From Octopus vulgaris (Eukaryota), in NCBI GenBank assembly GCA_951406725.2, contig OX597818.1:125674001-125738000 (forward strand): 64,000 bases of DNA. The letters run 5' to 3'. This document shows, piece after piece, positions 4,194 through 20,039 of this stretch. A program made the position numbers and the translations under genes. Under the pieces are notes generated by a model that was not told where the DNA came from, did not search any database, and saw nothing but the letters and a program-made list of their open reading frames with translations. How positions within the stretch are numbered: position 1 is the first letter of the stretch; each line of letters opens with the position of its first letter.

Positions 4194-4307
4194 ATTTAAA
4201 CGACAGGTAGCTGATATGCGAGTGGCTGAGTATCGGGCACTGATGGCATTGTCCAGAAAAATTACCTGCACCCAGGTAGCGTGTGGGTTAGTTGATATTG
4301 ATAAGAG
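4194..4307 (+). CDS. Neuropeptide precursor, peptide exon A: (x)FKR-QVADMRVAEYRALMALSRKITCTQVACGLVDIDK(S/R)
   Basis: Acceptor cccctgcttacag, donor AG|gtatag. 114 nt, phase 2/2, open frame. Dibasic KR followed by Gln. Clearly paralogous to exon B (D..AEY.A...LS, C..VACG.VDI). Confidence 0.85.
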
Positions 4308-5275
4308 GTATAGTAAGCTCTAGTTCAACCCCCAAACACTATCCTTTTACCTAGTCAAGACCTAAACCAAAGCCCTTTCTCACTTACCCGCCTCAAATCC
4401 TTAAGTAAATGGTCAATGCATTACATTGTTAATATTTTTTTTCGTGTTTTGTGTTATACCAATAATTAATAACGTAGCAATGATAGATTCAATTTTTACA
4501 GTTCAAATTTTTGTACCATTTCATTCATAAATATTGCACACACACACACACACAGACACACACACACACACACACACACACACACAGACACACACACACA
4601 GACACACAGACACACACACACACACACACAGAAACACACACACGCTTATATATGTATATTATACATAGTACTCTACCTTCATACTGTGTGGGCTGAGGTT
4701 CACACTTCATAAGCCGCTAATATGGCTTGGTTAAACTTCTGATTTAGGTAGCTAAATAATTTATCACTCTTGTGTCGTAGTTAACACGGCTATACACATT
4801 ACAGCAGACTCGGAGTTCAATTTCCATAGATCATTTAATGCATATAAATAGTATATGCATATACACAGATATTAATGTACAAGTATATATATATGGCCAT
4901 TTTACGCACACATACACGCATATGCACGTGTATATAGTAATATTTAAGTAAATATTTCGACCATTTGTTAAAGGAATATCGTGCTACCCTACCAACCACC
5001 TCCATTTCCAGTAAAACTCCATTGCCTCTTCTATAGTTATCTTTATCCAATGATACCCGTTCCTCACATTTCACATAGTTGGTCACATTATAATTGTTAT
5101 GTTATTACAAAAAGCAGTATTGATTTTATTTTGTTGTCATTACCTTTTACGTTGATATGTGCAATTTTCCTTCGCATTCCTTCTCGTATTTATAACGTTT
5201 GTTTCTTATCGACCTGTCAAATTGTTCTGTCATTATTGTTGATGTCCATTTGTGTGTTGTTTTACCTATTTACAG

Positions 5276-5395
5276 ATCGAAGCGCCAGACAGGCGATGTT
5301 AAAATAGCTGAATACCAAGCATGGTTAGGACTTAGTGGCACTGTACCACCGGGTTGTGTCGAGGTTGCCTGTGGGGTAGTCGATATAAACGCCAG
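5276..5395 (+). CDS. Neuropeptide precursor, peptide exon B: (x)SKR-QTGDVKIAEYQAWLGLSGTVPPGCVEVACGVVDINA(S)
   Basis: Acceptor ttttacctatttacag, donor AG|gtacag. 120 nt, phase 2/2. Lies inside ORF 5199-5447. Paralogous to exon A. Confidence 0.87.
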
Positions 5396-5914
5396 GTACA
5401 GTAAAATACAAAAAAACAGTAAAAGCCAAAATCCTGCTAAGCCATGAAAAATCCATTTTCAGGAATAGAAAAGACGCAAAGTTTTATGTTCTATCCTCCA
5501 GTAACATTGCTCTCCCTTCTCAATTTGTTGATTGATAAATGTTGTTTGCGTGTTTGTACATATGTATATAGGCATGTATTTATGTAATCATATATATATA
5601 TATATATATATATATATATATATATATATATATATATATGTATATATATTATATATGTATGTAGGTATGTATGAAGGTATGTATTACAATCCACCCAACT
5701 GAAAATGGAGGCCCCTGCTACAAACCAGGGTTCCATTTAAGAGTAATATAGGTCTTCCCGTATAAGCACTGTGGTGGCATCATTCGGGAGCTAACACAAT
5801 GAGAAAGCGCACTGTGATCAACGGTGTACAACAACATTTGATAGTCTGGTCTATCTATACTGTGCTGCTCTGATATATATATATATATATATATATATAT
5901 ATATATATATATAT

Positions 5915-6147
5915 ATATAATAAATATTAGGGAATAAATCCAAATTTACAGGGAAAAAATCAGATTTAGGATTAAATCCAATTTTATAGTAAAATATTAT
6001 ATAATATTATTAGAGACAAAACCACCATTTTGCAAAACATACAAGGAAAGACTTAATCAATACATAAAATTTTAATGAAAAGTAAAAAAAACCGCCACTA
6101 CAATTGTTTCATTGTTTGTTTTGCAAAATAGTGGTTTTGTCTCTAAT
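5915..6147. mobile_element. Fold-back fragment (probably Penelope-like terminus) between (TA)n tracts
   Basis: Internal inverted repeat attagagacaaaaccaccattttgcaaaac / gttttgcaaaatagtggttttgtctctaat. The same family occurs in reverse at 59545-60185. Confidence 0.5.
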
Positions 6148-16170: not shown

Positions 16171-17179
16171 ATAACTGATATATTTATTCTATACACATTA
16201 ACACAAATTCGGTAAACATATATATATGTATATATATATATATATATATATATATATATATATATATATATATAGATAGATAGATAGATAGATAGATAGA
16301 TAGATAGATAGATAAATAGATACACACATATGTGCCTGTGTGTGCATATATATATATATATATATATATATATATATATATATAAGCAAATTAGTTACCA
16401 CTCTATCTCAAGAAGCTAAAAGTCAAATGAGCTAAGCAGGACATAATAGACCTAGCTGCTAACCCATGGCAACCCACATCAGTTAGAAGCCTCTATTCCT
16501 GCCATTTTCTAACTAGTTCTTTATATTTCAAGCTCTTCCTTTCATGTAACCGGTCCCATGCTTTCGATGAACAGAAAATCTAAGTGGAGTTTTCTTATGG
16601 ATCATTTATACTCGATTTCAATCACTAATATTCAGCTGCTATATAAAGCAGTTATAAATTAGGCTATAGCTTTGGTGGATTGCTTAGCTTATATAATTGT
16701 GCTTTTGACGAGTCGTCTTTAACAGATATATTATGCATAAAACAGTGTGAGTCAGAAACACTGAAATAAATATAAATATTAGAAGACCTGAATTTAAGAG
16801 AAATATTTAGCATGTAGACACATTTTTCTCTACCTGTGATGCGCAGAAAACAAAAGAGAAGTGTCATGCCTGACCGTTTCACGGTTTGTTAAGCGCTCAT
16901 ACATACATACATGCATTCATACATACATATATAAATACATACATACATGCATACATACATACACACATAATTACAAAAATACATACATACAACAGTCTTT
17001 GAATTGAAGTTCGCACTTATATATAACACATACAGAGACATGTGCGCATAAAACACACATACACGTACATGATGACTTTGTGCACTTGGTCGATCTCGTG
17101 ATTAATATTGAATTATTTTCTATATCCTTATCTCTTTCTATACAAAAGCTCTTGGCAGTATCGGTACAATCGCCACAGG

Positions 17180-17330
17180 ATAGTAGTAGTAGTAGTAGTA
17201 GTAGTAGTAGTAGTAGTAGTAGTAGTGGTAGTAGTAGTAGTAGTAGTTGTAGTAGTAGTAGCTGTGGTGGAGGTGCCGTCGGTGGTGGTGGTGGTGGTAG
17301 TGTAGGTGGTGGTATTGGTGGTAGTTGTGG
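17180..17330. repeat. (TAG)n/(GGT)n microsatellite
   Basis: Direct inspection. Confidence 0.95.
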
Positions 17331-19933
17331 CTGAGTAAATTATGTCACTTAATCCGATTGGTTTGTTGGGAAACCCTTTAAAGTTTTCTATCTTAACTAA
17401 ATATACATTGCAAGACAGAGTAACTAATATCCGGATAGTAGAGAAGATGTATGAAATCAGCATTGAGATAAACGGCTTGTCAATTTTCCCGGAAACGATT
17501 GAAATACACGTGATCGAAAACAGTTACTCGAGAGAAGAAAAAACACATTGATCGAAGTACAACAATTAATCGAATTATAAATAAATATTCGAAGTACAGA
17601 AAATTGCTTAAAGGAAAATAGATTTTATTTTTTATTGCTATACAATATATAATCTCAAGTTATGAATGATTGCGAAGATATGAGTGTATGTGTGTGTACC
17701 TGTCGTGTTTATATTTAACAGTCTTGAACACTAGTTTCTAAATTGTTGAACATAAGCATAACAAGCTCAGACACATATAAGAAATTATTTTATATTCTAT
17801 TGTAATTTTTATAGTAAATTAGATATGAGATATTAATATAATTATATATACATATACACACACACAGACACACACACACACATATATATATATATATGCA
17901 TATAATGTTAATATAACATATATAGATTATATACTAATATATCATATTATATATCATATTATTTTATAGTCGTATTTTATATTTTGCGAGTTAGCAGGAC
18001 CCTGTTTCTATAATTGGTATTACAGCCGATCATTTTCTATCAATTGCTTTCTTAGTGAGACAGTCAATGTTAGCTCAATCACCCATAAGAGTGTTATAGT
18101 TCCCTCAGCTATACTCGTGTAGATTTAGTTTAACTCAATATTGAAAGGTAGCCGAAATCTCTTCAATTTAATAGAATTTCTCGCTATTCTCTGTGGTAAC
18201 TCATTGAACAACAATGAATACTTGCCAGCAATTTTCATGAAATGTTGATCATGATTTTCAATATGGCACGAAACAAGAAATATATTGTTTCAATAATGTA
18301 ATTTTTTTCATGCACATCTGACCTGACATATTGCGATTTCAACAAGTTATATATAAAATACAAAATATAATATATGCTACTTAAATCTCCACCATGAGCT
18401 GTAATTTTTGAACGAGCTCTGAAAATAAATTGCGAAGCACTGTCTCAAAAAACCTTACAATAAGGAAATAAAATCAGAAATAGTAGCCAAATCCCCCTTA
18501 AATGAAAGCGTTCTAACATATTAGATAATACTGTCCTAGACATATTGTATCTAGAAAATTTCATATGCTGGAGCACGTCTTATCATCGGATAAGATCTAT
18601 TCGATCAGGGTTGACATTAAGTTCAATAGCTGCAGCAGTTGTCATTCACGTAACCAGTCGTCATTCACGTGCGAGTAAGACTTGGTAACGTAATTCATGC
18701 GTATGCTCGTCGATTTCGGTGCCTAGGTTGTCATGAGCAGTCAGGGAAGTCCTTTAAGGAATCCTCTCATTCTTAACCTGGTGGAATAACCGGGATGTGA
18801 CAGCTGGAGTAAAAGAGAGGATTGCACTAGCACGCAACAGGTACTCGTAATATGTTGTCTGATTCAGGAATTCAAGTCAGAAATTATGATCATAAGTTAA
18901 TACCTCATCCAAAAAATGAAAATGAACTTAAATTATAGCAAATTCTACAGATAGTCGAAAATTGGCAAGTTGCGCTGGCAATGTAGGTTCTATTTCATGT
19001 AATACTTTTACATTTCGTTTAAAACTAAACAGTTATCAAATCGGCCTAATAAAAGCCTTTGAAAAACGGAAATAGAGCATCCGTCGATCGCTGCTACTGC
19101 TTTGATATGTTGATGTAAGCAGACTTACTATGAATGATGCGAAGGACAAGTAAATCTATTAGTGCTCCATTTTTACACAGTACAATGATATTCTATTGCA
19201 TCAGGAGAATTGAGGGAGAATTGGTCTAATGTCGTACCTAGTGTCTTGATATTAAAATACCAATAATATATTGAGAGTAGCCACCATCCTCAATCCACAG
19301 TTGAAGGGAATATATAACACTTGTCCAACAGTTTTGCCTGGCTTTAGAATTCAGCATAAACCTAGATGAGTAGCCTAGATAGATTGCTACCATTTGTCCA
19401 AGATGTTATCTCGAGTCTCCTGGGGAAAGGGGCAACTTAATATCCCTTTTACAGGTTGGCTTCTATAACTTAAGGCAAAGGCCTTTCACAAATAACAAGA
19501 AAGTACAACATTCGTTGGCGATCCAGTGAACTATAACGATTATAAAATTGAACAATATCGAGTGTTTTTTTTTATAGATAATAATCACTTATTAATGTCC
19601 ATAATTCATGATACTGTTTCGATCTCGTTTGTAAGCTATAAACATAATCTTAGTTCCGTAGTTATAAATTGGTAATAAATTTGTAATCTTAGCTTAAACA
19701 ATTAATTATATTTAAGAAAAGAGATGCTGCACTGTTATATTTTTGAGGTAAGTACACACACACACACACTCACACACAAACTCACAAACACACATCTTTC
19801 CAACAGCGTTTGATTTGAAAAGTTAAAATTAATTACTGGCGAGATCTTTCCACTTAATTTGATAAAATTTTAGTAACCAGACATTTTTTCCCTACACTGG
19901 TTTCTTTACACTTAGTTTTACTTACGATTTTAG

Positions 19934-20039
19934 CGGCAAGAAAAAACGTAGTGACATATCAAGTGACGACATCAGACGTTCAACTCTGGCTCAAAGACTG
20001 ATCCGATTTGCAGCAGAGAGACTTGCAAAGACTGAGTAA
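19934..20039 (+). CDS. Neuropeptide precursor, last coding exon: (x)GKKKRSDISSDDIRRSTLAQRLIRFAAERLAKTE*
   Basis: Acceptor ttttacttacgattttag. The first base C completes AG|C (Ser) for exons A/B or AT|C (Ile) for exon C, followed by the Gly-KKKR amidation/convertase signal. Stop TAA at 20037-20039. Donor-like G|gtgagg after 20051. Confidence 0.85.

Follow-up and report, generated by a model that had tools for sequence, protein, structure and literature searches.

Cleavage of precursors by convertases, amidation from glycine and formation of pyroglutamate from glutamine are established steps of peptide processing, and in vertebrates the single calcitonin/CGRP gene yields different amidated hormones by splicing. 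Its alternative exons bring their own amidation signals and 3' ends, and its peptides carry an N-terminal disulfide ring. A different arrangement occurs in a stretch of 64,000 nucleotides from Octopus vulgaris (assembly GCA_951406725.2, contig OX597818.1, positions 125,674,001 to 125,738,000, forward strand), called the window below, which holds most of what is almost certainly the octopus iPTH (PXXXamide/QSGamide) prepro-hormone gene with its cassette exon design. In this gene the cassettes are internal and join a common downstream exon, and cysteines sit close to the C-terminus of the peptides. The copy in the window is probably a fast-evolving, apparently undescribed duplicate of a known kind of gene. 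With moderate confidence, we explain it as a real duplicate of the iPTH gene that is under selection for changed peptides.

The closest described system is the iPTH gene of Octopus bimaculoides (LOC106873782), which has the same signal exon, three cassettes and a shared exon encoding glycine and basic residues. Its transcripts 1–3 in Table S1 of Xie et al. 2020 (PMC7224569) each place one cassette between these same two exons. Similar sets are listed there for Sepia, Lottia, Crassostrea, Lingula, Phoronis and Capitella, and in that table only some Crassostrea entries are labelled 'transcript found', among them a two-cassette transcript. The QSamide3/PXXXamide gene of the oyster Crassostrea gigas likewise combines three cassettes with one shared amidation exon, and is differentially spliced into single- and double-cassette transcripts; most of its peptides have been detected by mass spectrometry (Realis-Doyelle et al. 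2021, PMC8398477). The oyster has one QSamide and two PXXXamide cassettes, whereas the octopus has two and one, and the oyster results reported in that paper include no fast-evolving duplicate of the whole cassette gene. Further afield, the iPTH of the beetle Tribolium castaneum resembles the octopus precursor in its signal peptide, KR site, N-terminal D-x-R-x-A-E-L pattern and end of glycine and basic residues, but it is a single peptide without cysteines (Xie et al. 2020). It activates PTH-type class B GPCRs (receptors coupled to G proteins), which has been shown in the beetle only. Thiel et al. 2021 (PMC8557429) treat QSGamide as iPTH and the receptor pairing as unproven in lophotrochozoans, and the family was not recovered by De Oliveira et al. 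2019 (PMC6425005).

The splice-selectable cassette design is already published, even for octopus. An earlier sequence-only reading of the window had proposed it as a hormone repertoire produced by exon duplication within one gene. Duplicated cassettes do join a shared exon encoding glycine and basic residues, as that reading held, but the arrangement is not new, being published for O. bimaculoides. The gene it called hidden had also been annotated, since exons A to C are part of CAI9723493.1, a hypothetical O. vulgaris protein whose corresponding parts are 100% identical to them, and whose first and last exons are wrong. The features of the window that concern the gene are as follows.

1..4193, + strand: remainder of the intron after the signal-peptide exon, as judged from sequence; bases 1-1028 lie in a 3.1 kb block that is nearly identical between the two gene copies
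4194..4307, + strand: cassette exon A, 114 nucleotides, with a KR site and a two-cysteine QSGamide-type peptide of 35 residues
5276..5395, + strand: cassette exon B, 120 nucleotides, with a KR site and a two-cysteine QSGamide-type peptide of 37 residues
12211..12309, + strand: cassette exon C, 99 nucleotides, with a PXXXamide/iPTH-type peptide of 30 residues and no cysteines
19934..20051, + strand: shared exon D, with the glycine-basic site, C-terminal extension, stop codon (20037-20039) and donor (GT at 20052)
21273..21400, + strand: candidate start of a non-coding 3' exon, with an acceptor-like site and AATAAA near 21317
1..64000, no strand: copy 1 of a likely tandem segmental duplication, covering the entire window

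All three cassettes have AG/GT borders, as does exon D, and the cassettes are in phase 2/2 and have lengths that are multiples of three. Their coordinates, phases, KR starts and predicted peptide lengths had all been given correctly by the sequence-only reading. The first base of exon D finishes the last residue of the peptide, and is followed by Gly-Lys-Lys-Lys-Arg, a C-terminal extension and the stop. The signal-peptide exon (89 nucleotides, from the ATG to a phase-2 donor) lies outside the window at C5:125670568-125670656, which is 3,432-3,344 bases upstream of base 1. The reading frame is open in all eight cassette combinations between this exon and exon D, in agreement with the in-frame splicing of each cassette to 19934 that had been predicted. 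A profile search of the open stretches of 184 kb revealed no fourth cassette. Eleven residues at 6262-6294 that match the signal/B junction were dismissed as chance, since they fall in a high-copy repeat and 7 of 34 bases matched in the single register compared. Peptide A contains an internal Arg-Lys pair (4255-4260) at which cleavage may occur. This pair is also present in the published O. bimaculoides peptide, and is Arg-Asn in the other O. vulgaris copy and at both O. sinensis loci. About 115 bases that are identical between the copies form a candidate non-coding first exon (L008:6290-6401), whose end is a splice donor located 167 bases ahead of the signal exon.

A profile derived from 64 peptide fragments of relatives outside the octopods, with which 7,714 open stretches from 184 kb of sequence were scanned, supports assignment to the family. 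It matched exactly three exons per gene copy, with expectation values (E) of 1.6e-19 to 1.7e-9, the next best match having an E of 2.5; the cassettes are thus related to one another rather than alike by chance, as had been claimed. A protein profile search gave 62 matches at E<=0.001, of which 58 were inspected; the remaining four include three very long proteins that resemble chance matches. The ten relatives looked up by name were all molluscs, and several of the matched relatives are pairs of isoforms with and without one cassette. Conservation of the cassettes in related species, which the sequence-only reading had made a test, is borne out by the same exons in the published O. bimaculoides transcripts. 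Pfam models matched none of the four precursors tested.

Exons A and B are of the two-cysteine QSGamide type, and exon C is of the cysteine-free iPTH type. The 29 residues of the signal exon are all identical to annotated Octopus precursors and, judged by this identity and a hydrophobic core, a signal peptide is present. Exons A, B and C all begin x-K-R, providing the family's cleavage site before the mature peptide. The C-terminal glycine and basic residues, which are strictly conserved in the family (Xie et al. 2020, PMC7224569), are supplied by exon D for all isoforms, and additionally by the start of exon C in the window copy. Exons A and B show the marks of QSGamide/QSamide peptides, namely an N-terminal glutamine, two cysteines before G-x-x-D and a C-terminal Ser-Gly. 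The Ser-Asp that cysteine-free iPTH peptides conserve near the N-terminus occurs in exon C only, where the first nine mature residues equal those of oyster PALIamide. The proline that gives PXXXamide its name, at -4 from the amide, is absent, the residue being phenylalanine in the window copy and in Argonauta and valine in the other copy; the gene is therefore filed as iPTH and not as a literal PXXXamide. This proline is only mildly conserved, and the O. bimaculoides orthologue is listed without it (Xie et al. 2020, PMC7224569). The calcitonin/CGRP analogy drawn earlier is a loose one, as the cassettes are internal, exon C lacks cysteines and those of the other octopus peptides are in the C-terminal half.

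When the exons were searched for singly, each turned up at two places in the genome, once in or just upstream of the window and once inverted at C5:126.843-126.869 Mb, with 1.15 Mb between the two gene copies and no third copy. The other copy is a near-perfect match to the annotated genes LOC115211866 of O. sinensis and LOC106873782 of O. bimaculoides, and the window copy is therefore the divergent one. Accordingly, the O. bimaculoides gene, the only one listed for that species in the published table, is the orthologue of the other copy (C5:126.84-126.87 Mb), and the window holds a second copy in which 20 of the 108 cassette residues differ from the other.

The two copies sit in a duplicated block of 0.59 Mb, as judged from 844 kb of sequence inspected and from three interior probes, and not in a gene-sized duplication of 28 kb. 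Copy 1 of the block spans C5:125.52-126.11 Mb and contains the whole window. Copy 2 begins directly at 126.109 Mb. Its first part has the same orientation as copy 1; then come 112 kb that lack a collinear match, beyond which it is inverted as far as 126.92 Mb; the counterpart of the window lies in the inverted part (C5:126.34-126.92 Mb). Substitution divergence between the block copies is 2.2-3.6% in four segments, and stays at 2-4% throughout the 87 kb of aligned sites that were compared. Five accession numbers fall between the two iPTH gene models, and any further genes of the block are expected in two copies as well.

The block is likely to be a real duplication and not a retained haplotype. 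The principal rival, which we consider unlikely, holds that the two copies are haplotypes of one animal that differ by a large inversion and were both kept, so that the window carries a diverged allele of a single iPTH gene. False duplications can produce such an arrangement, a block repeated directly beside itself and inverted internally. There are also near-identical tracts, with 2 substitutions in about 2,590 sites, and the second of the two loci found in O. sinensis (LOC118761766) lies on a 48 kb scaffold that could itself be a haplotig. That locus carries both window-type marker residues, at the signal exon junction and in exon D, which speaks for a real duplication; its unchanged exon A and the size of the scaffold tell against it. 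Against retained haplotypes, the junction at 126.109 Mb has no N gap within 300 kb around it, the only gap seen being 26 kb before copy 1. Divergence is no lower in the non-inverted part of the block (3.6%) than in the inverted part (2.2-3.2%). The ordinary allelic difference can be gauged from run X1, which departs from the other copy at about 6 of 1,325 bases, suggesting roughly 0.5%. Finally, 20 amino-acid differences between alleles of a near-invariant hormone would themselves need strong selection.

Divergence between the gene copies is concentrated in the peptides. Exon A has four base differences and exon B seven, all of which change amino acids, and exon C has 15 base and 9 amino-acid differences; 25 of these 26 base differences sit in codons whose amino acid is changed. 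A to C differ at 20 of 108 residues, the signal exon and D together at 2 of 64 (Fisher P=0.002; for A and B alone, P=0.02). Non-coding divergence around the gene is 335 in 12,969 sites (2.6%) when simple repeats and the near-identical 3.1 kb block are left out, and 337 in 15,675 with that block. The excess in the cassettes over the 2.6% rate is significant (P=8e-7, or P=1e-5 with each changed codon counted once). In exon C, 15 of 99 sites differ, more than in any non-coding stretch of 100 sites (maximum 14), while its flanks are 1.7% diverged. The changes appear to lie on the window's side, since, for the 16 differences in B and C, an O. bimaculoides outgroup assigns 15 to the window, none to the other copy and leaves one ambiguous; the other copy differs from O. 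bimaculoides at just 1 of 71 residues in these exons. The window copy retains its cysteines and basic sites, and none of its five exons has a stop, a frameshift or a lost splice site.

Taken together, selection for altered peptides in the window copy is likely, and unproven. Several points weigh against it. The divergence tests were chosen after the data had been seen. Measured against a background of 5%, the excess weakens to P=0.007, or P=0.026 when collapsed per codon, and the ratio of non-synonymous to synonymous change (dN/dS) within A to C, at 3.0-3.5, is not significant (P=0.04-0.19). Of the 15 changes in exon C, 14 fall at positions 42-96, including two three-base runs, and, clustered in this way, they may not have arisen independently. 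Polarity is less clear when Argonauta is the outgroup, at 8 window-specific versus 4 other-copy differences and 4 ambiguous (P=0.39), and one exon A residue of the window, read by eye, equals that of O. bimaculoides and not that of the other copy. To these can be added the absence of window-type alleles from the runs described below.

One of the changes creates a processing site. At codon 12212-12214 a single-base change at 12213 gives glycine in the window copy and valine in the other copy, so that exon C begins Gly-Lys-Arg in the window versus Val-Lys-Arg in the other copy and in the published O. bimaculoides sequence. None of the 11 other precursors aligned has glycine here. Since exon C opens with Gly-Lys-Arg, joining A or B to C also creates an amidation site. 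The sequence-only reading had assigned amidation to a single shared exon; exon D does serve all isoforms, but in the window copy it is not alone. A window transcript of the A>C or B>C type would, from its predicted translation, yield two amidated peptides, and one from the other copy would have only its last peptide amidated. The cassettes need not exclude one another: besides the oyster transcript, two-cassette forms occur in gene models from O. sinensis, O. bimaculoides and Argonauta.

Expression was surveyed in contigs from 4 of 24 listed sequencing runs, taken from four studies and compared with window positions 3900-7000; none of the listed runs is recorded as RNA, so that treating them as such is guesswork, and contigs, which lose rare forms, can show presence and not absence. 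In each of X3, X4 and X13, one contig covers exon B exactly with seven letters differing, the same number that separates the copies, and the five differences listed are all alleles of the other copy. Loose contig ends match the signal exon in X4 and X13 and exon D in X4. Splicing from the signal exon to B and on to D is thus shown, for the other copy only. The contigs of X1 are unspliced, agree with the other copy at 22 of 25 listed variants and are the only ones to cover exon A. No A>B joint occurs among the loose ends listed for the four runs, and no window-type allele was found in any of them. Of the junctions proposed for checking by the sequence-only reading, the one from B to D was recovered for the other copy, and no contig had window alleles. 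A search for short proteins of the window type gave no candidate. Three DNA-sized runs (X16, X17 and X18) contained 0.56, 0.51 and 0.36 of the words from 4100-12400 versus 0.26-0.28 from the other copy's region, which counts as no evidence. The absence of the window form from all four runs is what a single gene with two haplotypes, or a silent duplicate, would lead one to expect; for a working duplicate, the window copy is probably expressed in a tissue or stage outside the runs examined.

A real duplicate under selection would operate as follows. The window copy would have arisen through the 0.59 Mb tandem duplication, and it is somewhat more probable than its opposite that selection for new amino acids has since changed its three peptide exons while the other copy kept the ancestral hormones. 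The phase-2 signal-peptide exon would be joined to exon D by way of one or more of the three phase-2/2 cassettes. The precursor would be cut at its basic sites by prohormone convertases, the C-terminal glycine would be converted to an amide, and the peptides would most likely act on a PTH-type class B GPCR; we infer this processing and receptor from oyster mass spectrometry and beetle receptor assays. A bolder extension, which we regard as speculative, is that the young duplicate was recruited outside the brain, for example as a reproductive signal or as a salivary-gland secretion acting on another animal's iPTH receptor, with positive selection reshaping all three peptides within a few million years and the new amidation site giving two active peptides per transcript. 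The salivary version by itself is very improbable.

After retained haplotypes, the next alternative is an older duplication in which gene conversion between the inverted copies has homogenised the introns and selection has protected old differences in the peptide exons, especially exon C. We consider this improbable. Divergence is indeed patchy: the 3.1 kb block (window 1-1028 and 2,070 bases upstream) is 99.8% identical between copies, or 0.1% diverged by substitution, and has flanks that differ by 2-4%, and a second tract at window 13000-14000 differs at 3 of 855 sites (0.4%), against an average of 2.6%. The first of these looks like recent gene conversion or an assembly effect, and the two together point to gene conversion or to homogenising during assembly, such that intron divergence may understate the age of the duplication. 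By eye, the 3.1 kb block resembles a decayed retroelement. Synonymous divergence (pS) in exon C is about 0.1, above that of the introns, and four window residues in B and C match Argonauta and not the other copy. Three of these four are common swaps, however, and a divergence of 2-4% over all the aligned sites of the block is hard to obtain by conversion alone. Moreover, the flanks of exon C are not more diverged than other sequence, and only one locus was found in O. bimaculoides.

Least probable of the three is a real duplicate that is silent or decaying and drifts under relaxed selection, for although its form is unseen in the four runs, its within-exon dN/dS is not significantly above 1 and some of its changes fall on residues well kept in other molluscs, drift at the non-coding rate predicts about 6 non-synonymous changes in A to C and not 22 or more, as well as similar rates across all exons, and no disabling change is present in the five exons.

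As the splice-selectable design is published, the window adds little to it, and its interest lies more in the duplicate. Octopus species hardly differ in their iPTH peptides, and the window copy has changed about one residue in five. If it is expressed, the peptides of the two copies are a ready-made ligand pair with which to identify the mollusc PTH-type receptor, which is still unproven, and they offer a chance to watch a neuropeptide gain a new function. If it is instead a retained haplotype, it points to a false duplication of 0.59 Mb in the reference, or to an allele of unusual divergence. In the main texts of open papers nothing was found on a second copy in O. vulgaris, on its peptides or on its accessions; supplements to octopus genome and single-cell studies may list it.

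The window also contains several repeats and mobile elements. In the C-D intron, a remnant of a Tc1/mariner-type transposase (Pfam PF01498) occupies 14863-15502, within a stretch that does not align to the other copy. A high-copy repeat at 6195-6400, inserted in the B-C intron of the window copy, is covered by contigs to a depth near 10,000 in each of the four runs. Repeats that are local, about 570-590 bases long and 81-93% identical, occur at 46062-47656, 52283-52859 and 55513-56066, and amid them a retroelement-like reading frame without a Pfam match lies at 46578-47255. Composite satellite arrays at 21846-23439 and 47944-50600 have opposite orientations and are built of units of 11-12, 23 and 10 bp, with a 32 bp unit in the second, and related arrays adjoin the other copy.

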